A stretch of 64,000 nt of DNA, taken from Promethearchaeati archaeon SRVP18_Atabeyarchaeia-1. Lineage in GTDB: Archaea > Asgardarchaeota > Atabeyarchaeia > Atabeyarchaeales > Atabeyarchaeaceae. The stretch's first letter is position 1. Each line of letters starts with the position of its first letter. Shown here piece after piece: positions 12,521 to 45,419 of the stretch. Location of the stretch: the NCBI GenBank assembly GCA_037308085.1, contig CP147779.1:1824001-1888000 (forward strand), read 5' to 3'. Below the pieces are notes generated by a model. The model saw only the letters and a list, made by a program, of their open reading frames with translations, had not been told where the DNA came from and searched no databases. A program made the position numbers and the translations under genes.

Positions 12521-12707
12521 CGTTTCCAAGAGACGAGATGACTTGAAATCATCTGGTTCGAAGAACGGATTTCAAGCAGACAAATATCTTAAATAGGAAG
12601 TAACGGATAAATAGGACTCGACTTCTTGAATCTCGGAAATGTTTGGGGACTTCAGCTGAACTGAGAGATTTGGGAAGAGAACTGTAACCTTAGAAGAGGA
12701 GAGAAAC

Positions 12708-14615: not shown

Positions 14616-14798
14616 AAGCGGAAACGCAAGAGAAAACATAGCTGACGGTGACCGACTGTAAATTGTGGACCAAAATTCCACATCCCTTTTTCTTATTGCA
14701 AGACGAATCTTAGGCTTTCGTCACTAGGATCGCTTCACCGAGAAGATCACAACACTTTTATGCCAGCATGCCAGAACGAGATGTATTCATAGAAAGAG

Positions 14799-17210: not shown

Positions 17211-17282
17211 CCACAGCAAGGAATTGCGGATCTGGCGTAGGTACAGAATCTGTTCGCTGATTCTCGCTTGGGTGAAAGTGAC

Positions 17283-18029
17283 TCAGAGGAAGGGGAAGAA
17301 AAGGTACCACAGGAGAAATGCCGATAACAGCGGAATAGTGACATTGTCCATCCATGAAACACACAGAAGTTCCGTGGCAGCAACAGCCGATGAGACTGCC
17401 GCTCCAATCAGGAGCAGAGAGACAAGTGGTACTCGTAGAGGATATAGAAGGAAAGCAAACATGATTGCCACGAACGTCATCAGCACAACAGCAAGTGATC
17501 CCTCAGCACTCTTGGTCTTGCCACGCCAGACATGGAACTTGTGCTTGCCGAAAGGGCGACCTACGACTTCACCTGCACCATCCCCCCAAGAGACAGCCAA
17601 GATAGAAGCGACGAATATCGCAGGGTAGCCCATGAACAGTATGAAGACTAGGGCGTACGAAGCTAGGGCAAAAACCGCGGCAAGAAAGGTCTGCAGGCGG
17701 CTTCCGTCTTCTCTCGTGCCAGAGGACAGAGCAGCTTTGGCAAGGTTTACCCCGAAGATGGATGCACCCAGAATGCCGGCAGCGAAAATCCCTATGGTGA
17801 TTGCGGGTCCAGTCAAACTACTGTAGAAGGGGAGTGCCAAGGCAACTAGCGAACTCATGACGATGTGCGTAAACTTGCGCGGAATCCACTTCTTGTAGCC
17901 TCTACTCGCTAGTAGCCACGAGATCGCCAGTGAAAGGAATCCGACGCCGACGACAACAACAACCAGAAGAATGTCTAGGGTCGTCAGGTCTGAGAAGAGT
18001 AGACTCACCATTACCATCGTCGCCCACAA
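17283..18029 (-). CDS. Dolichol/phytol kinase family (CTP-dependent polyprenol kinase) membrane protein
   Basis: RKFTH, WGDGAGEVVGRPFGKHK, KSAEGS and MDN motifs. Confidence 0.8.
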   Translation of the reverse strand: MWATMVMVSLLFSDLTTLDILLVVVVVGVGFLSLAISWLLASRGYKKWIPRKFTHIVMSSLVALALPFYSSLTGPAITIGIFAAGILGASIFGVNLAKAALSSGTREDGSRLQTFLAAVFALASYALVFILFMGYPAIFVASILAVSWGDGAGEVVGRPFGKHKFHVWRGKTKSAEGSLAVVLMTFVAIMFAFLLYPLRVPLVSLLLIGAAVSSAVAATELLCVSWMDNVTIPLLSAFLLWYLFFPFL

Positions 18030-18932
18030 TTGCCCAAGCTAGAACTTGCAGGGCACTTCATTCTGCTTGCATGCCTCTCCCTGTGAAATATCCAGATACG
18101 CATATTTCCGCTTTTCTACTGACCCCACGGCTTCCCCCACCACTGTAAAGAGGCTCGCAGCCTGCGCTCCTCACTATATTCGTGAAGGAGAAACAGCATG
18201 TGACGCGTTGTGGACATAGTTGGTGTTCTTTCGATCAGGGACGAGGGAGCCAAAAGAGAGGATTAAAGAACCATGGAATAATTTTTGAGGCGATTACTGC
18301 TCCGCGGGCATTCACTCACTCGATCATCTAAGTCTGTCTTTTCAAGGAGGAGAAATCGGGGAACTGCAAGAATTATCGAAGGATTCCCAGCCTCTCGCTA
18401 CCAGAGTCAAGCCATTCGAGAATCGCGTTACCGGTCTAGACCCCTCGGAAAGAAGGTGATCTACCTCAAGATCAAGAAGAGTAAGGATCTGATGAGAGTG
18501 TATATACGGTCAAATGATTTCCTTGGGAGGGTTTTCGGAGAGCTTTTCGGTAGCCACCGTCCTAGTAGCCGGGTGCCTCACACAGCGCTGGCAATGAATA
18601 ACCTGGCATATGGGACTTTCAGCCATGCTTGGAAAGCGTTTGAGAAGGCTGAAACATTTCTTGAGCAAGCTATCCAAAGCATTTGCTTAGTTAACCAAGA
18701 CTCAAGTCGAGAATCTCTCTCTGGTCGAGAAATGCGCGCTAATACAGCGAGCTAGCGAATGAGCCTCGGCGAGGTCTTTTGGGTACAGAATTTTGCGATC
18801 TTTGTGCTGCGGTGCTGGGCTTTCATGCAAAAAGAGGGAAACCTATTTGAAAGGAAGTTGCGGATAGTTAAATGATGCTAATGAATTGATTGCGAACTTC
18901 ACATGAATAGGGTAAGGACGCTGATTCTATCA

Positions 18933-19541
18933 ATGGAGAATCTCAAGTACTCCTTCAAAGTCGTGGTGGCTGGTGACCCAGAAGTAGGCAAAACTTCTAT
19001 GGTACGCGTCTTCGCCACCGGTAAGTTCGAGAAGAACTACATTCCAACCCTTGGCGTCAACATTCTCTCCAAGAACCTCAATTTCAAGAATGTCGAGGTT
19101 GCGATGGCGATCTGGGATCTGGCGGGCCAAGGCTTCATGGACGAGGTTAGAGGTCAGTACTACAGTGGAGCAAGAGCAGCGATACTTGTCTATGACATCA
19201 CTAGAGCAGACACTTTCGCTCGAATTGTTGCTTGGAATGAGGAATGTAAGAAGTTCTCGCAAGGTATCCTAACCAAGATCATAGTCGGGAACAAATTGGA
19301 TTTAGATTCTGAGAGGGAAGTGGCAACTGGGGACGGAATAAGACTTGCAGAGGAAATAGGTGCTGGATTCGTCGAGACGTCCGCCAAGACTGGAGCCAAC
19401 ATTGAAGTCATGTTCACCGAGTGCGCAAAAAGCCTGCTGAAGAGCCAACTCATGTACCTTGAGAACAGAGTGTCTTTCCTGACCGCGAGAGATGGCATGT
19501 CACAGCCAGCCGCAATTGTGAAGAATGAATCGGGGAGGTAG
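18933..19541 (+). CDS. Rab-like small GTPase (Ras superfamily)
   Basis: G1 GDPEVGKT, G2 YIPTLG, G3 WDLAGQ, G4 NKLD, G5 ETSAK, plus YYSGA. No C-terminal prenylation Cys. Confidence 0.92.
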   Translation: MENLKYSFKVVVAGDPEVGKTSMVRVFATGKFEKNYIPTLGVNILSKNLNFKNVEVAMAIWDLAGQGFMDEVRGQYYSGARAAILVYDITRADTFARIVAWNEECKKFSQGILTKIIVGNKLDLDSEREVATGDGIRLAEEIGAGFVETSAKTGANIEVMFTECAKSLLKSQLMYLENRVSFLTARDGMSQPAAIVKNESGR

Positions 19542-19547
19542 CCCAAG

Positions 19548-20792
19548 ATGCAGGATATTGAGAAATTGAAGCAAGCCAAGAAGAAGGCAGAAGACACGCT
19601 GAAAGTTATCGAAGCCAAGAAGCTTAATGGAGAAATAAATCCAGCCGAATACGACGCTTGGAAAAGGGAATTCACGGGTCACGTCAAGAAACTGTCGGGG
19701 ATGCTGGAGCAGATGGGGATCAAAGATGAAGACCTGGGACAGGAGAGGCCCATCGATACGCGTTTCCAGATGTACCTAAAACCAGAAGTTCAAGGCATAA
19801 TGAAGAACCTTCTTGAGAATCCAGAGGAGGAAATTACTCCGACTTTCGACTGGACGCTTGGCGATCGCTATCCCGAGATTGAACGTATTTCTGGTCTTAA
19901 GCCAGAACAGGCGAAGCCTCTGGTTGAAGGGCTCTACGATGCTGGAGTTCTTCAAAGGGAGTTTGCAGATGTTTACATTAAGTGCCCGAAATGCAATTCC
20001 TTCGCGATTCGCCCAAGAGTCCAATGCCCTTCATGTGGGTCTCCAAAAGTGATCAGGGATGAGGTCATAGAACATTCGAAATGTGGTTATCTGGACTTCG
20101 CTGCGTCCTTCAAGGATAAGAGTGGATATGTCTGCCCCAAATGCAAGAAGCAACTGAAGAAGATGGGGGACGATTACAAGATGCCTGGCGAATGGTATAA
20201 GTGCAAGTCCTGCAACGAATTCTCCGAAACCATTACTCTGAGAGAGTCTTGCAGCGCTTGTGGAAATCTGTTTGACGAAGAGGAGGCTGTCCTCCACCAA
20301 GCCTATTCCTACAAGCTTTCCCCTAACGCTAGGGCAGAAGTCGAGAGCGCACTGATAGTAGTCACACCTGTCAAGGATAGTCTTGGGAAGCTTGGGCTTA
20401 CAATAGAGTCGCCGGCAATGCTGAGGGGTCTCTCGGGCGCAAGGCATCAATTCATGGCGGCAATAGTAGATTCGTCTTCTGCAGCGCTAGATAGAAGGCC
20501 GATCGTGATCGACGTAGCTTCTTCTGAATCAAAGGTCGACGTGAATCAGGTGCTAAGCTATTTCGCGAAGGCGTGCGATATCGATTCTGTCGCAAAGCTA
20601 CTGATAGGCGTGCCAGGTTTCAATGAAGATGCTAAGAAAGTCGCTGCAAGCTATGGAATATTAGCCGTCGAGGCAGGCGACAAGGAAAGGATTCCCTCAC
20701 TTCTTGTAAAATACGCTCAGTCACTCGCCAAGAGCAACCCTGAAGAAGTCAAGAAGGAAATCAGTACTCTAAAATCGGTTCTAGAGGCATAG
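19548..20792 (+). CDS. Multi-zinc-ribbon (TackOD1-like) protein with a C-terminal restriction-endonuclease-like fold
   Basis: CPKC, CPSCGS, IEHSKCG, CPKC, CKSC and CSAC. C-terminal GLSGARHQF...IDV...AKACDI...A..YGI. Starts 6 nt after the GTPase stop. Confidence 0.7.
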   Translation: MQDIEKLKQAKKKAEDTLKVIEAKKLNGEINPAEYDAWKREFTGHVKKLSGMLEQMGIKDEDLGQERPIDTRFQMYLKPEVQGIMKNLLENPEEEITPTFDWTLGDRYPEIERISGLKPEQAKPLVEGLYDAGVLQREFADVYIKCPKCNSFAIRPRVQCPSCGSPKVIRDEVIEHSKCGYLDFAASFKDKSGYVCPKCKKQLKKMGDDYKMPGEWYKCKSCNEFSETITLRESCSACGNLFDEEEAVLHQAYSYKLSPNARAEVESALIVVTPVKDSLGKLGLTIESPAMLRGLSGARHQFMAAIVDSSSAALDRRPIVIDVASSESKVDVNQVLSYFAKACDIDSVAKLLIGVPGFNEDAKKVAASYGILAVEAGDKERIPSLLVKYAQSLAKSNPEEVKKEISTLKSVLEA

Positions 20793-21070
20793 CATCTGAA
20801 TAGGCGGACAATTAAGCCGCCTCGTTGGGCGTGAAGCTACCCCAATCTTTTTCCTCCCATTTGGATTGCAGATGGCTTATCGGGCTGAGAATCGCCCGAT
20901 CCTAAGATTCGGAGGACTTCGATCTCGAAATAACGGTAACATACCAATGTTCAGACTCAAAGCAAATAAACCCGCGCGGCAATATCTAGTCGTGTCAGGA
21001 TTGAGCCATCAAGCTTTTCAAACTCATTCTGAGTATTATTGTGTAGGTCGATAACAGGAGGTCCAAGGCT

Positions 21071-21637
21071 TTGCAGCATCGTCGCGGCGCGTTTTATCAT
21101 GATGAAGAAGCTAGAAGAAAGTGGCAAGATCCTGAAGCAATTCTTACCGACATAGGAGTGAGACCTGGATCCACCTTTGTCGACGTAGGCTGTGGGGAAG
21201 GTTTCTTCGCCATCCCAGCCGCGAAAACCGTCGGCAGAAAGGGCAAGGTCTATGGAATAGACGTGTACAATGAGGCGGTAGAGCACCTAAAACAAAAGGC
21301 CGATAGAGAAGGCTTGGGCAACCTGTATCTTCACGTGGGGGCAGCCGAGGAGACTGTCATTTGCAAGGGATGTGCCGACATCGTATTCTTTGGAATCGAT
21401 CTTCACGATTTCAGAGATCCAGAAAGGGTCTTGGCCAACGCCAGAGTAATGCTAAAACCCACCGGAAGACTAGTAGACCTTGACTGGAAGAAAGAACTCA
21501 CGGGAGTAGGTCCTCCAATCGAGATCAGGTTTAGCGAAGAAGAAGCTCAAAGTCTAATAAAGAAAGCAGGCTTCACTGTGGAACGGGTAGAGAGCGTCGG
21601 ATCATTTCATTACATTATCGAGGCGAGACTGAGGTAG
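21071..21637 (+). CDS. Class I SAM-dependent methyltransferase
   Basis: VDVGCGEG, GIDV and LKPTGRL. Confidence 0.9.
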   Translation: MQHRRGAFYHDEEARRKWQDPEAILTDIGVRPGSTFVDVGCGEGFFAIPAAKTVGRKGKVYGIDVYNEAVEHLKQKADREGLGNLYLHVGAAEETVICKGCADIVFFGIDLHDFRDPERVLANARVMLKPTGRLVDLDWKKELTGVGPPIEIRFSEEEAQSLIKKAGFTVERVESVGSFHYIIEARLR

Positions 21638-21650
21638 CCCAGCATGCATC

Positions 21651-22793
21651 TCAGACCGTTATTGGGTATCTCCCATATTCCTGTGCTTTCTTGAACATTG
21701 TGTCGATATTCTGTGGAGGCACGTCGGGTTGGATGTTGTGTGCGCCAGCCAGTATGTAGCCGCCGCTTGGACCCAGATCGTGTATTCGCCTTCTGACTTC
21801 CTGTTCGACCTCATTTTCGGTTCCCTTGGGCAGGGTGTATTGTGTGTCGATTCCTCCATGGTAGCATACGCGCTTGTCGTATTTTTCGACTAGATGCCGT
21901 GAATCCATGTCTTTTGCTCTCGGTTGAACCGGGTTCAGGATGTCCACGCCGACGTCGGCAAGTTCCTCGATTATGGGCTCAACTGAGCCACAGCTGTGAA
22001 ACTGAATCTTGGCTTTCTTCGCAAACCTCTTAAGATGGGAGATAAGATCCCTCAGCCTAGGCTTGACTAGTTTTCTCCAGAGTGCAGGCGACATAAGAAG
22101 GCCGTCCTGATGGCCGTAGTCATCTGCGCAGAGGACGATAGTGGCGTAGTCTCCTACCTCGATCAGATAAGCTTCCCAGAAGCGCTTGTTGATCTCCAGA
22201 GTTCTATCCAGCAAGGCGCTGGCAAACTCGGGGTCCGCTATGATGTCGTAGTAGAACTTGTTGAAACCCCTAAGCCAGACCGCCAGCTCCAACACACCCC
22301 CCAGGAACGTATCTGCTGTGACCGCTAGGCCACTCTCAAGGAAAACTTTCGCGCGCTTTCCGATATTGCTGAATCTTTCCTCATGTGGCTCGGGAGCCAC
22401 GTATCTCTCTATGTCTTCAATTGACTTGGCGCTGTACAGAGGCGCCTTATCCTCGACCAATTCGTAGTAGTATCCTTGGTACTGCCTTTTCAACGTTAGA
22501 CCAAACTCGTTGACTATCCATCCTTCTCCCCTTTTCACCTCGTCTTCTCTGGGTGGATTGGGTCGGATATGCCTGATGTCCACGCCGAAGCGCTCAAGAA
22601 TCTTCTCGTCTACGTCAACGAGTCCCTGCATCACATCCCAGATCTTGGACTCAACCACCCTGAATCCGAGGTGCTTCAGCAGGTTATCGTAGGCGGCTTT
22701 AGTGATGCCGCTTATCACCCCTCCAAGGTCAACTGGAACCCTATCCGGCTCCTTCCTGTCAATTGATAGTAGAACCCTATCGATATGTTGCAT
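21651..22793 (-). CDS. Uroporphyrinogen decarboxylase family protein (MtaA/CmuA-like methylcobamide methyltransferase)
   Basis: PDRVPVDLGG, ADDYG, FHSCG, HGGIDTQ and GGYILAGAHNIQ. Directly follows a corrinoid protein gene. Confidence 0.85.
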   Translation of the reverse strand: MQHIDRVLLSIDRKEPDRVPVDLGGVISGITKAAYDNLLKHLGFRVVESKIWDVMQGLVDVDEKILERFGVDIRHIRPNPPREDEVKRGEGWIVNEFGLTLKRQYQGYYYELVEDKAPLYSAKSIEDIERYVAPEPHEERFSNIGKRAKVFLESGLAVTADTFLGGVLELAVWLRGFNKFYYDIIADPEFASALLDRTLEINKRFWEAYLIEVGDYATIVLCADDYGHQDGLLMSPALWRKLVKPRLRDLISHLKRFAKKAKIQFHSCGSVEPIIEELADVGVDILNPVQPRAKDMDSRHLVEKYDKRVCYHGGIDTQYTLPKGTENEVEQEVRRRIHDLGPSGGYILAGAHNIQPDVPPQNIDTMFKKAQEYGRYPITV

Positions 22794-22797
22794 AATC

Positions 22798-23454
22798 TCA
22801 TCTTCCGATCAGACTCTTGCACAGTCTCACCGCTTCAACCGCGTCTTTGCCATAGGCGTCCGCTCCCACTTCTTGCGCATATGCCTGGTCGACGGCGCCG
22901 CCTCCAATGATGATCTTGAGCTTACCCCTGAGTCCTCGCTTCTCGAGTTCTTGTATTACTGTCTTCATCTCGCCCCTCGTTGTTGATAGGAGCGCTGACA
23001 TGCAGAGTATACCCGCCTTCTCAGTAGCCGCGGATTCAGCGAACCTCTGAGGAGGCACATCAGTACCCAAGTCGATGACCATAAAACCTTCAGGTCTAAG
23101 CATCAGGGTGACTATGTTCTTGCCGAGATCATGTATGTCTCCTCTAACGGTTCCTATTACCACAGTGCCCTTGGCCTCTGATAGTTTGCCTTGCCTGAGG
23201 ATGGGGCTCAGAATATCCAGTACTTTCTGCCCAACCACTCCGGCAAACATTAGCTCTGGGAGGTAGTAGACCCCCTTCTCATACTTGCTCCCTATCACTC
23301 CAAAGGCTTCAGAAATGCTCTTCACCAATTGCCCGGCGGGGGCTCTCTGCTCCAAGCATCTCCCTGCAACTTCTAGGGATTCTAATTCATTTGCCATGTC
23401 GATGCTGCTGATCAGCGAATCCCTCAGTTTCTCGGCTATGCTGGCTCGACTCAT
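22798..23454 (-). CDS. Corrinoid (B12-binding) protein, MtaC/MttC-like
   Basis: GTVRGDIHDLGKNIV (DxHxxG), SALLSTT, IIGGGAV, and the YYLPEL cap domain. Confidence 0.92.
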   Translation of the reverse strand: MSRASIAEKLRDSLISSIDMANELESLEVAGRCLEQRAPAGQLVKSISEAFGVIGSKYEKGVYYLPELMFAGVVGQKVLDILSPILRQGKLSEAKGTVVIGTVRGDIHDLGKNIVTLMLRPEGFMVIDLGTDVPPQRFAESAATEKAGILCMSALLSTTRGEMKTVIQELEKRGLRGKLKIIIGGGAVDQAYAQEVGADAYGKDAVEAVRLCKSLIGR

Positions 23455-23645
23455 GTTTCCACCTCAAGACTTCAACAGTCAGAATAGTAGCTAGATCCAA
23501 TTAAGAGTTAACGGTGGTCTGAACCTAGGGCGCCGACAGGCCTGCGGCATCCCACCTTATCCTACGTAACTCTTTTTACTGTGCTTCGACACAGACTATC
23601 ATAGGCATACTGCATGAGCATTTTGAATCCTTTGGAGGGGAAAGG

Positions 23646-25712
23646 ATGAAGCGCGCAAGATTCTGCGCCCTGCTAACCGTATCACTCGTCATACTTTCAA
23701 TCACATCTCCATATGCATCTTTTACTCCTCTTACTCCAGCATCTGGTGCATCTACCTGGCAGATATACCCCGCTTGGGCAGCAGTTAACCTGCTGACACC
23801 AGGCGCGAACGTGGACAGACAGGCCTGGGCTTTGCTGATCGCAAACGCCTTCAGCCAATTCGGAATTTCCGCCACGAGGCAGATAGTTCCGTGGCCCACT
23901 GCATACAGCAGGATGTTGACTCCAGACCCATCAGTCGTCGGCAAAAGCTGGGCTGATGGCGGCTTCGACATCGGCTTCATAGGGTACGCCCTGACCCCTG
24001 ATACCGATCCATATTCATTCTTTCATCCCTACGACGGGCACGGGTTCTTCACCGGCGGGAACTACTACCTTTGGAATAACACTGAGAATGACCAGCTGCT
24101 AGAGAGTATTCGGAGTGAAATGAATTCGACGAAGAGGCTTGAGTACATCAGGCAATGGCAAGAACTGGCTTACGACGAGCTCCCCAGCATTACTCTCTTC
24201 TACACCAAGGATGTGGTCGCCTTCAAGCCGAGCTTTCAGTCAACGCCATTCTCAACATACTATTACCCGTTGTGGCCCAGTGTCGAGCAGTGGAACGACA
24301 CCTTGGGCTCGACGAATGTTACCGTCGCCCAGATAGGATCCTTTGGTCCTGGCGGCGGCGAAGGCCTTGTCCCATACCTTACCACGTCATACTACGACCT
24401 GACAGTGTATGGACCGATCTACGGTGAACTTGGTGGCTTAGGTATGCTCATGAGGAACACGTCGATGGCGATGGTACCCTACATGGCTTACGGCAACTAC
24501 ACTACTGCCGCCGGCGGCAAGAACTGGACCTTCTGGATAAGACCTGGCATCCACTTCCAGAACGGTGAGGAACTCGATGCGCGAGACTATGTCTACACAC
24601 TGAGGTATGAGATGACCCCCACCTCTGGATCAGCTGGCTCAGGAGTATACGCCTACATAACCAGCATCATCTGTGGTGCAGATTTCGGTGCGGGCATTGC
24701 AGCGGGCTACGGCAACCACAGCGTCTACTGGGCTGGCGAGGCTGGAACGCCAGGAGCGGCTCTGCCTTACAACAAGTATGAATTCCATTGCGACGAGCAA
24801 GCCGCGTGGGCTTTGACGACGGTAGATATTGGAGGCCTTGCGATCATGCCAGCATCAGTTCTTGTGAACGCTAGCACTTTCCCAGACTACAGCACTTGGA
24901 ACCCATCAAATGCACCTTTTATGCAGAGCACATCATTCAACACTGGAGCCTCAGGCACATACAGGTACTATGCCAAGAACGGGACATTCATGGCAGCGAG
25001 AAGTGGACCCTTCGGTGCTGGTCCATACCAGTGGGCCGACTACAACACAGGGACCGGTACAGCACACCTGACAAAGTTCGACGGCTACTTCCGCCGCGCC
25101 GCGCTGGAGTCTGAGGGCATCTACAGGTTCACGGACTACTACGTCGTGCACATCGGCAGTGTTACAGCTGCAATAGCAGCTCTACAGGCTGGCAGCGTTC
25201 AGGTACTTGACAGCCAATACCACGTGGAGGCCTCTTTGGATTCACTGAACCTAGCATGGGCTAGTTGGGTTTCCTTTGATAGCTATGGCGTACAGGAGAT
25301 GGGCTTCAACATGCGCCACCCGATTTGGGGCACAGGTTTGGGAACACCTCTTGGACAGTCGGACGCATCACAGGCAAAGGCAGCTGCTTACCATGTTAGA
25401 CATGCAATCGAGTACTTGATCCCGAAGGACCAGATAATCAAGAACATACTCCACAACTTCGGCAGCTACGGAATCACGACCCCTGTCACGAGAGGCAACC
25501 TGGGCTTCGACGCCAGTATTGTCCCTCGCAACTACACGTATCCGGTGGCCATGCTCTTGGCTAAGGCGGAGTTTGAGGCTGCAGGATACACATTTGTACC
25601 GCCGCCACAGCATGGGCCCTGGTACAACTATGGTCCGTTGATCGCTGTTGTTGGGCTGGCTGGAATCATAGTCGTAGGAGGGCTCTACGCCTTTAGACCC
25701 CGCAGGCGGTAG
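23646..25712 (+). CDS. Family 5 (OppA/DppA-like) solute-binding protein, circularly permuted, with C-terminal TM anchor (SBP1)
   Basis: Signal peptide, NWTFWIRPGIHFQNGEELDARD, GAGPY, MGFNMRHP, EAAGY, then TM and RPRRR. Confidence 0.85.
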   Translation: MKRARFCALLTVSLVILSITSPYASFTPLTPASGASTWQIYPAWAAVNLLTPGANVDRQAWALLIANAFSQFGISATRQIVPWPTAYSRMLTPDPSVVGKSWADGGFDIGFIGYALTPDTDPYSFFHPYDGHGFFTGGNYYLWNNTENDQLLESIRSEMNSTKRLEYIRQWQELAYDELPSITLFYTKDVVAFKPSFQSTPFSTYYYPLWPSVEQWNDTLGSTNVTVAQIGSFGPGGGEGLVPYLTTSYYDLTVYGPIYGELGGLGMLMRNTSMAMVPYMAYGNYTTAAGGKNWTFWIRPGIHFQNGEELDARDYVYTLRYEMTPTSGSAGSGVYAYITSIICGADFGAGIAAGYGNHSVYWAGEAGTPGAALPYNKYEFHCDEQAAWALTTVDIGGLAIMPASVLVNASTFPDYSTWNPSNAPFMQSTSFNTGASGTYRYYAKNGTFMAARSGPFGAGPYQWADYNTGTGTAHLTKFDGYFRRAALESEGIYRFTDYYVVHIGSVTAAIAALQAGSVQVLDSQYHVEASLDSLNLAWASWVSFDSYGVQEMGFNMRHPIWGTGLGTPLGQSDASQAKAAAYHVRHAIEYLIPKDQIIKNILHNFGSYGITTPVTRGNLGFDASIVPRNYTYPVAMLLAKAEFEAAGYTFVPPPQHGPWYNYGPLIAVVGLAGIIVVGGLYAFRPRRR

Positions 25713-25927
25713 GGAAGCCCGCCCTGAACGATGCTGGAACGCGCGAGGAGCTGCAGGAGCAGAAGATCTGAATTAGATCAGAGAATCGACAATCACAGGT
25801 CGGATCTCGGCTCATGAATTTATAAGCATCTGCAGAACACCATTTATCCGTGGAAGGGACAGCGACGTAGGGGGTCTGCAAGTTCCCCGTCCAGAATGTG
25901 GGAGCGGTTCAGGAAAAGGGGTTCAAA

Positions 25928-28381
25928 TTGAGAAGAGCTACGTATTCGCCGCCAAGGTTGGCTGCAGCTCTAACGCTCGTGGTGATTGCGTCCTCATTCT
26001 CTTTACCAGTATTCGCAGCAATGGCTGCGGCTCAGGGAACCGGAGCAACCGTAGATCCCGTAATAAGAATCTACCTCCTAGTTTCGCCAGGGGCCATGAG
26101 GCAGTCCACGGCACAGGTTATAGCGAACTGTCTGTCGGAACTTGGGATTCAAGCACAGGTGATCTCAGCTGACTGGGCAACTATCAATGGCAGAGCCTTC
26201 TCTCCGGCCCCCAGCATGATCGGGAAAACTTATGAGCAAGGAGGATTCGACGCTCTGCTCACAGACTGGCTCTACAATCCTGACCCTAATCCTTATCCCA
26301 TGTTTCACAGTAGCCAGATGCCTCCGACTGGGCAGAACTACTACCTCTGGAATAACACAATGGCGGACATGCTCGCGTATAACATGACAAGGGTTATTGA
26401 TCGCCCCACGCAGCTGCAATGCGCTGAGATGTGGCAGGAAGTAGCCTACGAGGAACTGCCCTCAATCGCAATATGCTATGACCATGGTGTAGTTGCATTT
26501 CGCCCGAACCTCAATTCGACGCCATTCGAAGCGTGTTACTATCCTAGGTGGCCGGGTGTTGAGCGCTGGAGCTTCACCTCATCTCCTATGACCAGCGTTA
26601 CCGTAGCCCAGCCTGGGGCGTGCCCGTATTGGGGGCTGACGCCGTACCATTCAAACTACTACAGTGACATGACTGGTTATGCCCCAATCTACGGCGAGCT
26701 TGGCGCCTACGGTCTGCTCATTAGGAGTCTGAACTCGACTTTGATGGAGCCTTACATGGCCTACGGGAACTACACGATGTCGCCTGATGGGAGAAACTGG
26801 ACTTTCTGGATACGACCTGGAATAAGGTTCCATAACGGCGAGGAACTTGATGCAAGAGACGTGGCGTACACCTACAGGTATGTCATGACTCCAAGCTGGA
26901 ATTCTGGCTGGTACTCCTACGTCAAGGGGATACTTGGAGCCAACAGTAGCGTGTATTGGGCAGGTGAATCAGGGACAGCGGGGGCAGGCATGCCGTACAA
27001 CAAGTTTGAGGTGCACTTTGACCTACCGCAGCCGTGGGCTTTCTTCCAGGCGGACATCGGAGGCGGGGCAATTCTTCCCGCGTCCGTAATTGTGAACTCG
27101 AGTAGTGGGATACCCGATCTCAGTGCCTGGAATCCGGACCCCGTAGGCACGGCTGGGTTTGTGTGGACATCCTTCGTCACTGGAAGCGCCGACACTTACT
27201 GGTACTATGCCAAAAACGGAACGCAGTACACGTCTTCGGGTCCGATGGGGGCGGGTCCATACAAGTGGAGCTCCTATGATCCAAACACGGAGACAGTGCA
27301 TCTCATCAAGTTCGATGGCTATTTCAATAAGGCCGTGCTGGAAGCTGGAGGAGCATTTGGAATAACCGACTACTACGTGAAGCACATCGCCGATGCCTAT
27401 TCAGCCATCTCATGCTTGACAAGCAACACGGTCCAAGTTCTCGATTCTAGCTATCACCTCGGAACATACGTAGCATCTTTAGATCCCGGCTGGAGCCGAA
27501 TAATCTCGTATCAAGGATACCAAGTGACAGAGCTGGGCTTCAACATGCGCCACCCAATCTTGGGCACAGGGCTGGGTACCCCCTTAGGTATAACCAATGC
27601 AAGTATGGCGGCTGAGGCAGCGAAGCACGTCAGACATGCACTTGAGTACTTAATCCCAAAGGACCAGATAATCTCGTCAATCCTAAACGGCTATGGCGAG
27701 CCTGGCCTTACGCCGCCTATTATGAGATCAATGCCAGGATTCAACTACGCCATTACCCCACGCAACGGTACATTGTCGAATGTCAAGGTCCTCGCTATGA
27801 ACGAGTTGGAGGCTGCGGGATACACGTTTATACAGGGACAAGGATATTGGCCGAATTATGATCTCCTTATTATTACGATATCTCTTGTCAGTATAACCTT
27901 CGCCTCGCTACTCCTCGGAGTGGGCCTAATACGAAGGAGAAGCAGGTTGAATGCCGACGTTCGAGGCCAAAGAGGAAACCCGCGCATTGAAACTCCAATA
28001 AGCCAGCCTGAAACGCTGGAACAGGGCGAACCGGAGAAACCAATTGAAACCTCGGTTCCACGACAAACTACAATGCCGTGCCCGCGTTGCGGAGCAATTT
28101 CCAGGGATCCTGCCGCGCAGTACTGCAAATACTGCGGGGCACTTCTGGGAGGCGGTTCAAGAGGGATGGAGATTCAGGCCAAGGGAAGAACATTCGCGCT
28201 AAAGGGCAGATGTATGGTTTGCAATCTTCCAATCGGGAAAAGTGATGAGGTTGTCTGGTGCCCCCGATGTGGAAACGCTGCGCACAGGACACACTTGCTC
28301 GAATGGTTGCACGTCAAAAGCTACTGTCCGGTCTGCCGCGCACCCATCAACCAAAGAGACCTTCTCTCTTCACGTGATTGA
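25928..28381 (+). CDS. Family 5 solute-binding domain + TM + cytoplasmic zinc ribbon + RING-like finger (SBP2, receptor-like)
   Basis: Paralogue of SBP1 up to ELEAAGY. Then TM LLIITISLVSITFASLLLGVGLI, RRRSR, CPRCG...CKYCG and CMVC-x12-CPRC-x4-H-x2-H-x3-W-x6-CPVC. Confidence 0.85.
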   Translation: MRRATYSPPRLAAALTLVVIASSFSLPVFAAMAAAQGTGATVDPVIRIYLLVSPGAMRQSTAQVIANCLSELGIQAQVISADWATINGRAFSPAPSMIGKTYEQGGFDALLTDWLYNPDPNPYPMFHSSQMPPTGQNYYLWNNTMADMLAYNMTRVIDRPTQLQCAEMWQEVAYEELPSIAICYDHGVVAFRPNLNSTPFEACYYPRWPGVERWSFTSSPMTSVTVAQPGACPYWGLTPYHSNYYSDMTGYAPIYGELGAYGLLIRSLNSTLMEPYMAYGNYTMSPDGRNWTFWIRPGIRFHNGEELDARDVAYTYRYVMTPSWNSGWYSYVKGILGANSSVYWAGESGTAGAGMPYNKFEVHFDLPQPWAFFQADIGGGAILPASVIVNSSSGIPDLSAWNPDPVGTAGFVWTSFVTGSADTYWYYAKNGTQYTSSGPMGAGPYKWSSYDPNTETVHLIKFDGYFNKAVLEAGGAFGITDYYVKHIADAYSAISCLTSNTVQVLDSSYHLGTYVASLDPGWSRIISYQGYQVTELGFNMRHPILGTGLGTPLGITNASMAAEAAKHVRHALEYLIPKDQIISSILNGYGEPGLTPPIMRSMPGFNYAITPRNGTLSNVKVLAMNELEAAGYTFIQGQGYWPNYDLLIITISLVSITFASLLLGVGLIRRRSRLNADVRGQRGNPRIETPISQPETLEQGEPEKPIETSVPRQTTMPCPRCGAISRDPAAQYCKYCGALLGGGSRGMEIQAKGRTFALKGRCMVCNLPIGKSDEVVWCPRCGNAAHRTHLLEWLHVKSYCPVCRAPINQRDLLSSRD

Positions 28382-28513
28382 GCAACAGCTAGGCAGCGTA
28401 ATCATTGAGAGACCTGCTTATTCTTCTCCCTCCAGGGACTTTCGACGTGTCCATGCCTGCGCAACTTGTCTGGGCCTCCATCGCTTCGAGAGAACATGCG
28501 TTGCGCCTTGTGC

Positions 28514-29500
28514 TCATGTAAGCACGCCTTGGCTGGGGCCGTTTTGACGCTTTTTGTGGCTTCTCTCTTTCCGGGGCGCGCCTTCACTGGGCTTACGTTG
28601 GCTTGGAAGCAATTGTCTCAGGCGGTCCCTTTGAACTAGCAGTTCGATTCTCTGCATTGCTCTTTCTACGTATTCCTGGTTGATGTCGATGCCTATGTAG
28701 TGTCTACCGGTGTTTCTCGCTGCAAGGCAAGTCGCACCTGCGCCGCAGAACGGATCCAAGACCACTTCTCCCTTGAAGGTGTAAAGCTGTATGCACCTGT
28801 AGGGCAGCTCGACAGGAAAAGGCGCCGGGTGCCCTACTTTCTCTGCAGACTCTGGCTGGAATTCCCATACGCTTTTGGTGTATTCGAGAAACTCCTCCTT
28901 TGATATTGTAGGTTCTCTTCCCTTGTCACTTCTCCCAAATTTGCCTTTAGAGAAGACTAGTATGTACTCGTGTGTGTCCCTTAGGGTTGGATTTGTGGGT
29001 GATAGCCAGCTTCCCCACGCGGTTGAGGCGCCAGCGCCTGCTCCCTTGTTCCATATGACTTCTCCTCTCATCAGGAAGCCGACTTCTGTCATGACGTCTA
29101 TCACGAACTTGTGGTACGGAATGTAGGGCTTCCTCCCAACGTTTGCGATGTTGATGCAGGCCCTGCCTCCATTGACGAGTACTCTGTTTGTCTCGGAGAA
29201 GACGCCTTTCAACAATCCTGAGTATTCCTCAAGGTTCAGGTCTTCGTCGTATTCCTTTCCCACATTGTAGGGAGGTGAGGTGACCATGAGGTGGACGCTG
29301 CTATCCGGGATACTGTTCATCTTTCTTGAATCGCTGCACAGAACTCTGTCCAGTACTTCGGGAGGAATAGGATTCTCAATTTCGGGTTCGCCCTCTGCTA
29401 CTTTTAGGTCTTGGTACAGCTTGCCCCGGTAGAATGGGGTGGAGTCGTGGCACTCCCTCTTCGAAACGCCGAACCTGCTAGTCTTGGTTCCCCTCACCAT
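28514..29500 (-). CDS. Site-specific DNA methyltransferase (N4-C/N6-A, beta class), orphan
   Basis: TSPPYN precedes HPAPFP and LDPFCGAG. No cognate endonuclease adjacent. Confidence 0.9.
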   Translation of the reverse strand: MVRGTKTSRFGVSKRECHDSTPFYRGKLYQDLKVAEGEPEIENPIPPEVLDRVLCSDSRKMNSIPDSSVHLMVTSPPYNVGKEYDEDLNLEEYSGLLKGVFSETNRVLVNGGRACINIANVGRKPYIPYHKFVIDVMTEVGFLMRGEVIWNKGAGAGASTAWGSWLSPTNPTLRDTHEYILVFSKGKFGRSDKGREPTISKEEFLEYTKSVWEFQPESAEKVGHPAPFPVELPYRCIQLYTFKGEVVLDPFCGAGATCLAARNTGRHYIGIDINQEYVERAMQRIELLVQRDRLRQLLPSQRKPSEGAPRKERSHKKRQNGPSQGVLT

Positions 29501-29787
29501 AAGGATCTTCCTCTCCACTCGTTGCCTAAGAACTCACTCTTCAATACCGATCAGATCAAGTTAGAATACAACACGTCTAAATGGTTATCTCTAGAGACTC
29601 TAGTGTAATATTCGTGAACAAGATTCGATCTAGCAAAAAGCAGAGCGTCTCGTGCCGCTCCTCTCAAAACGCCGGTCTCTGCTTGGATATCATGCTCTCG
29701 TTGATTTCCCGTAATGTCCGTCGTCCCACGTATTCTCCCCTTGCTTCAGCGAAGCCAGCTTCAGGTTAGATTATTACAGACGCGGGC

Positions 29788-30009
29788 CAGAAATCCCACG
29801 CCCTTTAGAGGTGGGGTGAGTGGGGGGTATGAATAGGGGAACGTGCATCTGTCTCTGCAATAGGCACGGTGCGTGCCGAATCTACGCCTGCGGAGATCGA
29901 AGCCGCTACTCCCGCGCCCCTGGGCGCGTCAACGGTGCCCCAAACGCGCCAAGGCAAGCTCGGTCCATGAGCCAGGAAGCCAACACGCCTTAGCGCGTTG
30001 GCAGCTCAC
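29788..30009 (+). mobile_element. Non-autonomous IS200/IS605-derived element (copy E2): left-end hairpin, omega-RNA-like scaffold, right end TCAC
   Basis: Left hairpin AAATCCCACGCCCTTTAGAGGTGGGG, internal ACGCCTGCGGAG, right end GAAG-CCAACACGC-CTTA-GCGCGTTGG-CAGCTCAC. Colinear with E3 and E1. Confidence 0.8.
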
Positions 30010-30029
30010 TACTCTAGGCAACTGTCACG
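29860..30029 (+). ncRNA. Putative TnpB omega-RNA/reRNA of E2 (scaffold to 30009, guide from flank TACTCTAGGCAACTGTCACG)
   Basis: Hairpins GGCACG-GTG-CGTGCC and CGCGCCC-CT-GGGCGCG plus the terminal hairpin. TATA-like TATGAATA at 29828-35. Boundaries approximate. Confidence 0.5.
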
Positions 30030-30093
30030 TGTCGCAGAAGCAATGTATTTATGGATGAAGCCGGATAGTTGTATTGCCGCAGTTACTTGTAGC

Positions 30094-32856
30094 ATGGGGG
30101 GAACGCAGTTAAAGCGCGGCGAGAAACGTTATGCGCTTCTATTTGTGGCAATGCTGATCTTCACTGGGCTCTCCTACCAATTCGCGCCCAGTACGTTGAA
30201 TACTTCTACTCCAAGCCAAGAGCACTCAAGAACCCCATACATATCTACGCCTTTCAGCATAACCCTGCTGGTACCTGGCGCAAACCCGCAGAGACAAGCT
30301 TGTGCGCAAATGGTCGCGGCCAACATGCGCAGCATTGGCATACAAGTGCAGACGGTCATTGCTTCATGGGCTCAGACCTACTCGAGGGTTCTGACGCCTG
30401 ATCAGTATGTGATTGGGAAGCCCTATGATCAGGGCGGTTTCGACATGGTATTTATTGGATATTCTCTGGGTCCCGATCCAGATCCATACACCTTGTACCA
30501 TAGCAGTCAATTCGCCCCGTATGGAGAGAACTACTACCTCTGGAACGACTCATACAACGATGCATTATGCTACAACATAACGCACACAGTCGACCCTACA
30601 CTGCGTCTTCAATACGTTCATCAATGGCAGGCATACGCCTACAACTGGACACCTAGCGTGGCAATCTACTACAACAAAGAGGTCGTAGCCTTCAAGCCAA
30701 GCTTCCAGTCAGCACCATTCCAGAATAACCACTATCCACAGTGGCCTGGCGTTGAGCAATGGAACGACACAGCGGGCTCAACCAACGTCAAGATTGCGCA
30801 GATAGGACCCTTTGGTCCTGGCGGTGGCCAGGGTCTTGTCCCATACCTTACCTCGTCATACTACGACTTGACGGCCTACGGACCCATCTTCGGTGAACTT
30901 GGCGGCTCTGGGCTGCTTACCAGGGATCAGTCAGGAGCAATGGTGCCCTACGTGGCTTACGGCAACTACACAGCTACCGCTGGCGGCAAGAACTGGACCT
31001 TTTGGATTCGTCCTGGAATCACGTTCCAGGATGGCACGCCACTTGATGGTAGGGACTTTGTCTATACGCTGAGATACGAGATGACTCCTGCCTCCGGATC
31101 GGCTGGAACAGGAGCGTACAACTACGTGTCTGGCATCATCTGTGGTTCCGATGTCAGCGCTGGTATAGCCGCGGGATATGGCAATAGAACTGTCTACTGG
31201 GCAGGTGAGCAGGGAACACCAGGAGCGGGGCTGCCGTTGAACTACTATGAGGTTCACGTCGACCAAGAAGCTGCTTGGGCTTACACGGAAAGTGACATCG
31301 GAGGTTCCTCAATCCTGCCGGCAGAAGCCTTGGTAAACAGCAGCGCAGGAGTCCCAAACTACAGCGCCTGGAATCCATCTAATGCGGCTGTCCTTCAAGG
31401 CACATCGTACAACACTGGAACGTCAGGAACTTATGTGTACTATGATAAAACAGGATCATTGATGCCGGCCAGATCTGGGCCTTTCGGTGCTGGTCCGTAC
31501 AAGTGGATTAGCTACGACACAGGCACGTTTACTTCGCATGAGCAGAAGTTCAGTGGCTACTTCAGACGCTCTGCCCTTGAGGCCGCGGGTGTCTACAGGT
31601 TCACGGACTACTACGTCGAGTACATCAGCAGCGCTACGGCTGCAATAGCTGCTCTGCAGTCTGGCAGTGTTCAGGTGCTCGACTCACAATACCACTTGGA
31701 GAACTTTTTGGGTTCACTCAATCCTTCGTGGTCTAGTCTGACTTCCTACGATGGGTACGGCGTACAGGAGATGGGTTTCAACTTGCGCCACCCGATCTGG
31801 GGGACTGGTCTGGGCACTCCTCTAGGTCAGTCTAATCCAGCGAGGGCAGCCGAAGCCGCTTGGCACGTTAGACGCGCAATAGAGTACCTAGTTCCGAAGG
31901 ACACCATAATCAAGCAGGTTCTCAATGGGTATGGCACATATGGTATCACAACCCCGATTACCCGGAAGACCCTCGGCTTTGACACGAGTATCGTTCCTCG
32001 CAACGAAACCGCACAGAGTGCAATCACTCTTGCTCAACAGGAGCTTGAGGCAGCGGGATATGTATTCCTTCAGCCACCGGGGACGATCTCAGACTTGGCT
32101 GCTGGCGCTTCAAGTGGCACTACGATTACTTTGACTTGGACGGCACCCGGCGCTCATGGCATGAGCGGAAACGTTTCGAGCTACGTTGTCAAATACTCCG
32201 AAAGTGGGGCCGTAACCCCCTCAAATTGGGGATCGGCAACAAACTTCACTCAATCGTGGAAGCCAGCCAAGAATGGAACCCTGGAAACGCGTACAATTTC
32301 TGGTCTTGACAACGCCACGAGATACTGGTTTGCAGTAGAAGCTTGCGACAACGCGACGCACTGCGGTGATGTTTCGAACAGCCCGATGGGTATAACTGCC
32401 GACGCTTTTCCGCCTGCCACAATAGCCGACCTCGCAGCGGGTAGTGCAACTGCTAACTCGATCACTTTAAGTTGGACTGCGCCTGGTGGGAATGGCACAC
32501 TAGGTAAAGCGGCCGGCTACGTAGTTAGGTATTCTACGAGCGGGCCCATAACCGTGGTCAACTGGGCATCCGCGAAGAACTATACTCAGTTTTGGGCACC
32601 TCTTCCCGCGGGCAGCATAGAGAGTCACGTGATAAATGGGCTAAACACAAGTACCCTGTACTGGTTTGCAGTCAGGGCGTACGACGGGGTTCCCAACATG
32701 GGCGGTGTCTCCAATAGTCCAAGCGAATCAACAACTAGCGGAGGAGGCGGGCAGCCTGGTGGAGCTCTTCCCATCGAAGTAATAGCTCTAGTCGGTATCG
32801 CAGGAGTGGCGGCAGCCACCGTGGCGGTGGCTATCGCGAAGATCCGCAAGAGATAG
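30094..32856 (+). CDS. Family 5 solute-binding protein with two fibronectin type III domains and C-terminal TM anchor (SBP3)
   Basis: Close paralogue of SBP1. Two repeats of (PPxT)IxDLAAG...ITLxWTAPG...YWFAV.A.D...VSNSP, then TM and KIRKR. The track start (29998) lies inside element E2. Confidence 0.85.
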   Translation: MGGTQLKRGEKRYALLFVAMLIFTGLSYQFAPSTLNTSTPSQEHSRTPYISTPFSITLLVPGANPQRQACAQMVAANMRSIGIQVQTVIASWAQTYSRVLTPDQYVIGKPYDQGGFDMVFIGYSLGPDPDPYTLYHSSQFAPYGENYYLWNDSYNDALCYNITHTVDPTLRLQYVHQWQAYAYNWTPSVAIYYNKEVVAFKPSFQSAPFQNNHYPQWPGVEQWNDTAGSTNVKIAQIGPFGPGGGQGLVPYLTSSYYDLTAYGPIFGELGGSGLLTRDQSGAMVPYVAYGNYTATAGGKNWTFWIRPGITFQDGTPLDGRDFVYTLRYEMTPASGSAGTGAYNYVSGIICGSDVSAGIAAGYGNRTVYWAGEQGTPGAGLPLNYYEVHVDQEAAWAYTESDIGGSSILPAEALVNSSAGVPNYSAWNPSNAAVLQGTSYNTGTSGTYVYYDKTGSLMPARSGPFGAGPYKWISYDTGTFTSHEQKFSGYFRRSALEAAGVYRFTDYYVEYISSATAAIAALQSGSVQVLDSQYHLENFLGSLNPSWSSLTSYDGYGVQEMGFNLRHPIWGTGLGTPLGQSNPARAAEAAWHVRRAIEYLVPKDTIIKQVLNGYGTYGITTPITRKTLGFDTSIVPRNETAQSAITLAQQELEAAGYVFLQPPGTISDLAAGASSGTTITLTWTAPGAHGMSGNVSSYVVKYSESGAVTPSNWGSATNFTQSWKPAKNGTLETRTISGLDNATRYWFAVEACDNATHCGDVSNSPMGITADAFPPATIADLAAGSATANSITLSWTAPGGNGTLGKAAGYVVRYSTSGPITVVNWASAKNYTQFWAPLPAGSIESHVINGLNTSTLYWFAVRAYDGVPNMGGVSNSPSESTTSGGGGQPGGALPIEVIALVGIAGVAAATVAVAIAKIRKR

Positions 32857-33701: not shown

Positions 33702-34022
33702 GGGGTTCAAGTTCCCGCGTCACTCCCTCGAATTCATCAGTCGACCTCCGTTCACTGCTCTATCTAGTACTCTTCCCTATAAGTGTGCCCGAGGATCAAG
33801 AATGATGTCCACGGATGCAAGACTCAACGAAGAAGGCTGATGCCACCAAGATTACGCAGAAGCGATTAAGAGCCTGGCGAGCGGATCAACTGGGAAGTAC
33901 GAAGTTGACAAATATGGGAAGATGCCCTCATAGAAGGTACCGCAAGGAGACTGCCCTTTTCAGGGGGTGGAGGAATTGCGGAAACACTTTCATGGAGTTC
34001 CTAGGTTCGGCAGATAACATGA

Positions 34023-34125
34023 ATTGTGGATGCTTGGGACACCTCGAAGTGGTGTAGCCACTGCGGTGCCGTGGCTAAGCGCAGGCACTCCGCCAACTAC
34101 GCGCTCTTCAATTGCCCTCGTGGGC
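34023..34125 (+). pseudogene. tnpB/Cas12f-like zinc-finger relic
   Basis: Translates as IVDAWDTSKWCSHCGAVAKRRHSANYALFNCPRG (TSxxCSxCG...FxC). Nearby CTGCCCTTTTCAGGGGGTGG (~33951-70) resembles an IS605 end hairpin. Confidence 0.65.
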
Positions 34126-34147
34126 GACTATGCGATAGGGGTGCTGA

Positions 34148-44082: not shown

Positions 44083-45419
44083 GAAGCGGGGGAGGAATTG
44101 CCCTCCCACAGATGGTGGTTTTTAAGGCGGCATCACCAGTACTCTTTTTGGTGCGCAAGGGATGAGGAGAGAGGTCGTCAAGTCACTTGAACTGAACCTT
44201 CTCCCACTAACCTCAGCGAAGCAGGGCGAGCTCTCCCACCTCTTCTCCGAGTACACAGGCGCCGCCAACGAAGCCCTCACCACACTCAAGACCCAGAGGC
44301 CACCCTCAGAGACGCGGCTCCACCACCTAACCTACAAGAGGATCCGCGAGAGATCCAAGCTTCCTGCTCAACTCGTCTGCGCAGCGCGGCTCGACGCCTG
44401 GGCGAAGCGCAGGCAAACCATCACCAGCTTCAGGCACCTACCCATATCCTACAACGTGCCTAGGAGCGGCTCCCTTAAACAAACGAGGCGAGGCAACCCC
44501 ATCCTCAGCCCAGCCTCGCTAAACAGGCGCATCGGCCTCCGCGTAGCCAGGGATGGCGCGTGGCGAAGACTCACCCAGATGCTCTCAGACGAATGGGCCT
44601 TCACCGAGTTCAAGCTGCTCAACACGCACGCAGCAAGGGTCACCCTCAAGCGGCGCTTCCAAGTCGCCGAGCCTGGGCCGGGCCAGGCAGTGCTGGGCGT
44701 CGATGTGGGAGTCGGCACACTCGCTGCCATAACCATCTTCGACGCCCACGGAGTGGGGCAGCAGCTCTACTTTGGGCGAGACGTGTGGCAGGTGAAGCGC
44801 GACCTAGGTATACGCCGCTCGAAGCTCCAAGCTCACGCCTCTGCGTGCTCCAGGAGGGCGCGGCGCGCCCTCCGCAACCTCAGGGGCTACGAGCGCAGCT
44901 TCGACAAGACGAGGTGCTACCAGGAGGCGCACAGGATCGTCACCCTCGCCAAGCACTACAATGCAACGATCGCCGTGGAGGACCTCGACGGGCTGCATAG
45001 GACGAGGCTGAGCCGACGGTCCAACCGCAAGGCGAAGCGCATGCCCTATTCGGGGCTCAGGCAGGCGATCCAGGCGGTGGCCTGGCAGGAGGGCATCGAG
45101 GTGAGCCTCGTCAACCCGCGGTACACATCCCAGACATGCTCCAAGTGCGGCGCCAAAGGCGTGAGAAGAGGAGCCACGTTTAGTTGAGGTTGCGGGTTCA
45201 CCGCTAACGCGGATAGGAACGCGTCGGTGAACATCGCCAAACTGCTCTGGGAGCGGACTCGGCGGCGCGCCTCGGGGCGCGAAGCCGTGCCCAGTTTTCC
45301 CGGAGTGGGGCTGAGGTCAACCAGCCCGCCCCGTGCCATGAATCTTGGCAAGATGAGGCTCGCAGCCAATGCTTGCCACCACGAGCACAAGCCGCCTATC
45401 TCAATAGGTGGTAGTTGAC
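44083..45419 (+). mobile_element. IS200/IS605-family element carrying tnpB only (IS1341-like)
   Basis: Left hairpin GGGAGG-AATTGC-CCTCCC (~44089-44107). Right end CAAG-CCGCCTAT-CTCA-ATAGGTGG-TAGT-TGAC. GC-richer than flanks, no tnpA. Left boundary approximate. Confidence 0.8.
44162..45418 (+). pseudogene. tnpB: RNA-guided endonuclease TnpB interrupted by an in-frame TGA at 45185-45187
   Basis: RuvC-I LGVDVG, RuvC-II IAVEDL and YTSQTCSKCG. After the TGA the same frame continues GCGFTANADRNASVNIA (RuvC-III). Confidence 0.88.

Follow-up and report, generated by a model that had tools for sequence, protein, structure and literature searches.

A protein-less mini-element with a TnpB-type guide-RNA scaffold in the genome of an Asgard archaeon

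The window analysed here, a stretch of 64,000 nucleotides from the Asgard archaeon Promethearchaeati archaeon SRVP18_Atabeyarchaeia-1, corresponds to genome positions 1,824,001-1,888,000 of a single 2.81-Mb contig (CP147779.1; 49.6% G+C). It contains a 232-nt element, E2, which is too short to code and holds no open reading frame (ORF) for a transposase or nuclease. What is such an element, where did it come from, and could it still serve as a guide-RNA gene? The first-pass annotation of the window had taken E2 for a minimal IS200/IS605 derivative that keeps the ends, a TATA-like box and the scaffold of an omega-RNA, the guide RNA of TnpB. This description was borne out by the ends, the homologies and the structure reported below. 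We consider it probable (about 0.8) that E2 belongs to the palindrome-associated transposable elements (PATEs), having arisen as a protein-less product of internal deletion in a tnpB-only (IS1341-type) IS200/IS605 element; this reading comes with the working model set out below.

Ends and origin of the mini-element

In an alignment of the copies of this family with their flanks, the similarity begins right after TTAC, which precedes at least 10 of the 13 copies, or right after TTGC, which precedes two, and it stops right after the terminal GGTAGCTCAC. The boundaries of E2 were set by the loss of similarity among 12 aligned copies. Flanking sequences are unrelated on either side, and no target-site duplication was found. 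Both ends carry subterminal imperfect palindromes, each with one bulged base, and there are no terminal inverted repeats. The features of E2, in window positions, are as follows.

29774-29777 (+): TTAC, insertion target and left cleavage site (C_L); presumed TnpB target-adjacent motif (TAM)
29778-30009 (+): E2, 232-nt protein-less IS200/IS605 mini-element (probable PATE); full-length nhmmer E = 2.5e-66, scaffold covariance model 152 bits
29791-29794 (+): left guide tetranucleotide (G_L) at the foot of the left hairpin; AAAT in E2, AAAG in the family consensus
29795-29815 (+): left subterminal hairpin, CCCAC-G-CCC / loop TTTA / GAGGTGGG, read from the sequence; one mismatch in E2
29828-29835 (+): TATA-like box, TATGAATA in E2 and TTTAAATA in the family consensus, weakened in E2; putative promoter
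29857-29858 (+): approximate deletion junction, placed by the limits of homology; predicted transcription start, ~23 nt past the box
29858-30009 (+): omega-RNA-type scaffold, homologous to the last ~50 tnpB codons plus the right end; includes nested long-range helices
29863-29877 (+): helix 1 of the scaffold
29884-29895 (+): ACGCCTGCGGAG, in a near-invariant scaffold block
29976-29979 (+): right guide tetranucleotide (G_R) GAAG at the foot of the right hairpin
29980-30001 (+): right subterminal hairpin; as DNA the presumed TnpA site, as RNA the last scaffold stem
30006-30009 (+): TCAC, right cleavage site and last bases of the element; TCAC end in 11 of 13 copies
30010-30029 (+): 3' flank, would-be guide of the E2 omega-RNA, a role taken from established TnpB biology

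All features that had been listed for E2 (left hairpin, box, scaffold block, GAAG, right hairpin and TCAC) were located in the sequence. The architecture of the left hairpin is that of the right hairpin and of the left ends of full-length tnpB elements. The element itself was real, but the span first given for it, 29788-30029, began 10 nt inside the left end and took in the 20-nt flank. E2 had also been said to hold no coding remnant. No ORF survives, the tnpB-tail frame being broken by indels or stops in several copies and lacking a start codon; positions ~82-231 are nevertheless homologous to the last ~50 codons of tnpB.

This homology points to the parent of the family. Mini-element positions 82-231 run colinear with the final ~50 tnpB codons and the right end, both in this genome (G000) and in five others (G001, G023, G031, G033 and G040), whose orthologous tnpB genes are 52-71% identical and have alignable tails. 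The TAG stop codon of tnpB is the TAG within the terminal GGTAGCTCAC, and translated searches recovered the mini-elements as 45-58-residue pieces of the tnpB tail. The "scaffold" is therefore the 3' coding end of tnpB. At the other end, positions 3-74 match the left end that lies before an N-terminal tnpB fragment at genome positions 1967960-1968487 (minus strand) with 81% identity; a second match is that of the full-length element of G001, a genome of the same genus. The homology to the left ends of full-length elements extends up to about model position 75-80, and the homology to the tnpB tail starts at 82. The junction thus lies near model position 80 (window ~29857), and it is the same in all copies. 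In a scaffold tree, the mini-elements formed one clade (support 100/98) beside the scaffold of the genome's own tnpB. This single clade and the shared junction show that the deletion happened once and that its product then spread as a mini-element. Judged by these homologies, the mini-element is what remained when an internal deletion brought the left end and its promoter box next to the tail of tnpB and the right end. The TATA-like box occupies the same left-end place in full-length relatives, 24-52 nt upstream of the tnpB start codon, and by its position the box of E2 would be inherited from the tnpB promoter of the parent. The logic of a TATA box applies because the genome has a TATA-binding protein (TBP): we found two TBP genes, and in the control genomes the TBP family was matched only in archaeal ones, so that these genes also identify the genome as archaeal.

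A genome-wide search for further copies, as had been recommended, was run with nhmmer and a covariance model, and gave 13 protein-less copies of ~230 nt (E 1e-24 to 1e-45), well beyond what chance would produce. By a profile built from the copies, these comprise 12 full-length copies and one more diverged full-length copy, with several fragments in addition; the scaffold covariance model recovered the 13 protein-less copies and one tnpB-attached scaffold. The term mobile, used for the element from the start, therefore suits the family, which spread as a mini-element with one origin and one shared junction to 13 loci, at least 10 of them after TTAC. Matches to the TnpB zinc-ribbon domain number 46 in this genome, which also has three Y1 TnpA genes. 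Covariance-model searches found the scaffold family in 41 of 151 Asgard genomes. Two further copies, E1 and E3, lie in the window.

12291-12521 (+): E1, diverged decayed copy; E = 1.5e-50, covariance model 106 bits; flank TCAC, end CAGC, degenerate TATA box
54831-55052 (-): E3; E = 3.9e-66, covariance model 162 bits; TATA box, scaffold and right end intact, left end degenerate

The colinearity of E1, E2 and E3 reported by the first-pass annotation held, all three being among the 13 copies in unrelated flanks. The terminal stems quoted for the three copies do differ in sequence while keeping their pairing; the end of E1 is CAGC and not TCAC. E1 sits on a long branch of the scaffold tree (terminal branch length 0.5), and in E3 the left hairpin and AAAG guide are lost from the first ~35 nt.

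Other partial derivatives of the same tnpB family were seen. The relic at 1967960-1968487 (L068) is made up of an E-type left end and, of the tnpB gene, the first ~145 codons only, in a region (1.947-1.972 Mb) dense with other tnpB and tnpA genes. In G040, a genome of another Asgard family, three loci (L084, L086 and L087) are independent internal deletions of the orthologous element with different junctions, each keeping the left end, the scaffold and the right end. L086 retains no more than a short piece of the C-terminus, L087 has ~25 N-terminal and ~100 C-terminal codons left, and L084 was not recovered by the TnpB query.

Structure and constraint of the retained scaffold

To what extent does the retained tail resemble a guide RNA? 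A structure alignment of 26 sequences, i.e., 12 mini-elements and 14 tnpB-linked relatives, gave a nested consensus of 36 pairs in 8 helices, with the caveat that in the tnpB-linked rows the same bases also encode protein. Paired cells made up 91%, as compared with 27-37% when the 3' partners were slid. Changes on both sides were seen in 20 of the 36 pairs (6-10 when slid), and the covariation score was 0.39 (0.06-0.13 when slid). None of 500 shuffles equalled the observed values (two of 500 for further pair types). Pairs of the right hairpin co-vary (AU:13, UA:12; CG:11, GC:11), and helices 1, 3, 5 and 6 are internal, so that the covariation signal is not confined to the DNA end hairpin. The first-pass annotation had made its reading depend on covariation beyond the end hairpins, and such covariation was found in these internal helices. 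By this comparison, the retained part was shown to be a complete omega-RNA-type scaffold with covariation.

We then consider how the protein-less copies vary along their length. Variation was measured across 11 close mini-elements with a mean identity of 81%, in variant cells per column.

Model 1-84, left end including the TnpA hairpin: 1.63
Model 85-135, core A: 0.41
Model 136-170, variable stretch: 2.03
Model 171-210, core B: 0.75
Model 211-231, right hairpin and end: 1.29

Variant cells amounted to 5.1% in the core as compared with 15.3% in the rest (Fisher p = 1e-16; column-wise Mann-Whitney p = 6e-10), where the p values are overstated since the cells are non-independent. Each conserved block is over 85 nt away from both ends and outside any ORF. 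Of the arguments for a continuing role of the scaffold in the mini-elements, this constraint is the strongest. A selfish homing model, in which copies with a failing RNA are lost after excision, predicts such a pattern by survivorship; the pattern is no proof of that model. The conservation of the scaffold may outlast the mobility of single copies such as E3 and E2, which could point to a role of the RNA or its ribonucleoprotein beyond homing. E3 and m2548, with ends that look dead, still reach 153-162 bits under the scaffold model; in E1 and m1684 dead ends go together with decayed scaffolds.

Mobility, cognate nuclease and competing explanations

The ends of the family follow a known scheme of cleavage. 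The family consensus pairs AAAG with TTAC on the left and GAAG with TCAC on the right, and the corresponding pairs in IS608 of Helicobacter pylori are AAAG/TTAC and GAAT/TCAA (PMC5934647). The right pair of the E family differs from that of IS608 by a single T-to-G change matched by an A-to-C change. The fit of GAAG/TCAC to the IS608 TnpA pairing rule, as proposed at the outset, was confirmed, and it holds for AAAG/TTAC at the left end as well. The left guide of E2, AAAT, is one base off, and by this G-to-T change it no longer fits the TTAC flank; cleavage of E2 is therefore probably impaired. E2 probably no longer moves, or is no longer efficiently excised, and looks like a slightly decayed copy. 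As to an autonomous element with the same ends, a TnpA- and TnpB-encoding element at 1.573-1.575 Mb of the genome has a right hairpin and a TCAC end identical to the family consensus, a match that concerns the right end. The Y1 TnpA of this element (genome 1573364-1573714) would be a reasonable candidate mobiliser.

Empty sites were sought by comparison with related genomes and by exact pattern, and none was found. Same-genus and same-family genomes are 66-81% identical in the flanking genes, and their intergenic parts do not align. The exact pattern of TTAC and the 16-nt E2 guide had one metagenome match, whose flanks are unrelated; since a collection this large should contain a 20-mer match by chance, it was rejected as an E2 empty site. 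A contig from another assembly that carries the methyltransferase gene neighbouring E2 ends inside E2, a repeat-induced break.

A dispersed guide array had been suggested, in which each copy takes a new guide from its insertion site. The 16-nt guides of the 13 copies had no second genomic match beside TTAC at up to two mismatches, their only TTAC-adjacent genomic match being their own site, and the E2 guide had no match in the viral collection. The array idea thus found no backing, and an array aimed at other genomic loci was rejected. With no second match, the sole target of each RNA would be the empty site of its own copy. A guide array accounts for this less well than the selfish homing model that Meers et al. 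demonstrated for full IS605 elements (PMC10055086).

Is there a nuclease that could load such RNAs? One cognate tnpB gene exists, at genome positions 2527109-2528380, with 422 codons; its locus on the minus strand (L014 210-1478) spans 2527104-2528380. Its product matches PF07282, PF01385 and the ISDra2 TnpB structures (E = 2e-9), and the RuvC-type D/E/D motifs and the zinc ribbon align in the alignment with the best PDB match (9yyg). The cognate TnpB on which the first-pass reading depended is thus present with its catalytic motifs aligned, but its gene has lost the left end, the promoter and the native start. The cognate tnpB gene is also fused head-to-head with the C-terminal part of a truncated FGGY-type sugar-kinase gene.

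On these data we propose the following model. In a single deletion, the left end, comprising TnpA hairpin, AAAG guide and tnpB TATA box, would have become fused to the final ~150 nt of tnpB and the right end, and the ~230-nt product would have spread to 13 sites after TTAC, presumably in trans by one of the three Y1 TnpA proteins. The retained box would start transcription ~23 nt downstream, at the 5' edge of the scaffold. The predicted RNA would consist of the ~150-nt scaffold (29858-30009) with its 3' end running into the flank, which would act as guide. Provided that the RNA is loaded by the one cognate TnpB, the resulting complex would cleave the TTAC-plus-flank site that excision leaves empty, and the element would be regained by recombination with another copy of the chromosome. 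The mechanism put forward in the first-pass annotation is plausible and agrees with proposals already published.

RNA data were available from four wetland metatranscriptome runs, searched as contigs against window positions 12000-31900; in the run records, the related samples are entered as metagenomes of wetland and soil. One very small run yielded seven contigs, all in ORFs. Four of the seven are mismatch-free (12908-13081, 13526-13741, 15443-15692 and 30136-30288), and none lies on E1 or E2 in this very small run. The identical contigs indicate that the source organism or a near-identical strain is in that wetland sample. The contig at 30136-30288 lies within the substrate-binding-protein gene just downstream of E2. 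In a promoter benchmark, which was noisy, 10 of 22 aragorn tRNA calls had an upstream box with at least six of eight matches, as compared with a 12% background.

Several findings weigh against the reading of E2 as a PATE with a working guide RNA, and most of them are what would be expected if the copies were inert relics, that is, decaying PATEs with no working RNAs and no use of TnpB, in which the scaffold was kept by the chance of the founding deletion. A mean pairwise identity of 81% marks an old family. Many copies are damaged in their cleavage guides, hairpins or TATA boxes: the left guide reads AAAT instead of AAAG in E2 and m1174, and E2 shows a mismatched hairpin and a weakened TATA box besides; the terminal bases are TCGC in m2548 (genome 2548431-2548660) and CAGC in E1; the left hairpin is gone from E3, and the right one is broken in m1684. 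Copies such as m1604 and m1560 are intact. The sole cognate tnpB, compared with its G001 orthologue, lacks the left end, the promoter, the start codon and the first ~7 codons, and its start would be a TTG without a visible TATA box, so a working nuclease is not assured; the other TnpBs of the genome are at most 29% identical to it. When the 13 mini-elements were taken alone, 88.2% of positions were paired as compared with 87.0% in shuffles, with weak covariation, because the copies are close relatives. The single-sequence fold of E2 is no more stable than that of shuffles (z = -0.6), so that the support for the structure comes from comparison. A same-genus genome holds the tnpB element, and no mini-elements were found there. 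Finally, no Rfam family matched the window at gathering thresholds, and around E2 the search gave one chance-level match (E = 2.4). Neutral decay, however, is expected to be even, whereas the two internal scaffold blocks carry a third of the variation of the left end; moreover, 88% of the scaffold pairs still form in the mini-elements, and the independent deletions in another Asgard genome likewise keep the left end and the scaffold. We therefore regard the inert-relic explanation as possible and rather doubtful. We are equally tentative about the opposite proposal, that the 13 copies are under purifying selection as working, self-promoted guide-RNA genes, all dependent on one 5'-truncated tnpB, so that PATEs would be parasitising the nuclease of a dying parent. 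If this were true, a 13-to-1 guide-to-nuclease network would exist in an Asgard archaeon.

An effect at the level of the host offers another explanation, in which the copies are mobile promoters or regulatory inserts acting in cis on a downstream gene, or have an RNA role unrelated to TnpB, such as the titration of TnpA, a function suggested in the past for PATE RNAs of haloarchaea. All 13 copies are intergenic, and five of them (E2, m15k, m2029, E3 and E1) lie 47-190 nt upstream of a co-directional gene. Over-expression of a PATE-derived RNA improved growth of Halobacterium (PMC4615843), and the right-end loop of the E family has a related UUCA/UUNA motif. Against this, there is no overall orientation bias, in that the 13 copies divide into five directed at a gene start 47-190 nt away, five convergent with the neighbouring gene and three far from genes; the flanking genes are unrelated, and the conserved part is the TnpB-type scaffold rather than the promoter box or the flank junction. 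A host-level effect of this kind is thus very improbable in our view. The specific idea of a regulatory insert was rejected, as the copies show neither an orientation bias towards gene starts nor a consistent arrangement.

Related systems and surroundings of E2

The PATE reading of E2 places it in a class of elements first defined in Haloquadratum walsbyi as protein-less IS605-type derivatives, some with part of the C-terminal region of tnpB (Dyall-Smith et al. 2011, PMC3119063). The E family resembles the Haloquadratum PATEs, including HqIRS71, in its non-coding length, the lack of terminal inverted repeats and of target duplication, the near-terminal palindromes, the conserved short target oligonucleotide and the internal deletion of an IS1341-type tnpB element. 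It differs in that the host is an Asgard archaeon and not a haloarchaeon, and in that it retains a complete covarying scaffold with a TATA box directly before it. The 2011 paper predates the discovery of omega-RNAs. Meers et al. (2023) later reported that PATEs often encode omega-RNAs that need TnpB in trans (PMC10055086). The PATE-like elements of Geobacillus stearothermophilus are likewise protein-less with the same ends as tnpB elements; there, too, the TAM is the TnpA target site, the guide is the 3' flank and the empty donor joint is the target. In contrast, the Geobacillus elements have a bacterial host, and omega-RNA expression and the activities of TnpA and TnpB were measured for them, whereas the E family is known from sequence alone, has a nuclease to mini-element ratio of 1:13 and depends on a nuclease gene that is 5'-truncated.

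Stand-alone omega-RNAs of OMEGA systems offer another comparison. According to a PNAS survey that summarises Altae-Tran et al. (2021), mobilised stand-alone omega-RNAs work in trans with compatible effectors (PMC10691335). As described there, such loci resemble the E family in lacking an effector or transposase beside effector-bearing loci in one genome, and they are proposed there to add targets without duplicating the whole system, which is the guide-array idea considered above (PMC10691335). The E family differs in that its guides match their own flanks only and in that its activity in trans is a prediction. In Halobacterium salinarum, sotRNAs and the PATE-derived RNA VNG_R0052 are expressed (Gomes-Filho et al. 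2015, PMC4615843). Like the RNAs predicted here, these are archaeal RNAs from the 3' ends of IS1341-type tnpB genes, with a fused left and right end in the case of the PATE, and they have a right-end stem-loop with a UUCA-type loop. They show no sequence or Rfam match to the E family, and they were detected by RNA-seq, in contrast to the E family. IS608 shares with the E family the TTAC target with an AAAG left guide, the guide tetranucleotide at the foot of each hairpin and the scheme of the right pair; unlike E2, it carries both tnpA and tnpB, and the hairpin sequences are unrelated.

The kind of element described here is thus already published, as PATEs (PMC3119063), PATE omega-RNAs acting in trans (PMC10055086) and stand-alone omega-RNAs (PMC10691335), and current understanding is unchanged. 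What E2 and its relatives add is a well-delimited Asgard PATE with a complete TnpB guide-RNA scaffold directly behind the promoter of the parent, an unusually skewed ratio of guide cassettes to nuclease genes (13:1) and a measurable constraint on the RNA core in non-coding copies. If the RNAs are made and loaded, the family would provide a natural test of TnpB homing in trans by non-autonomous elements, and of whether one compact archaeal TnpB is programmable by separately encoded RNAs.

E2 is flanked by a divergent N6/N4 DNA methyltransferase gene on one side and a substrate-binding-protein gene on the other, and it points into the latter from just upstream. Predicted substrate-binding-protein genes surround E2 (window 25898-32856), one of them a 952-codon ORF with repeated C-terminal modules and a terminal membrane anchor, and a related Logan contig (L081) has more SBP_bac_5 genes beyond the methyltransferase gene. 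Further along the window, a sub-threshold remnant of a TnpB zinc ribbon (24 bits, 43-codon frame with one TGA) was seen at 34020-34139 (+). A tnpB gene of a different family, with a 430-codon frame broken by one TGA, occupies 44126-45418 (+); it contains the PF07282 match at 45047-45235 (68 bits) and is unrelated to the E-family nuclease.

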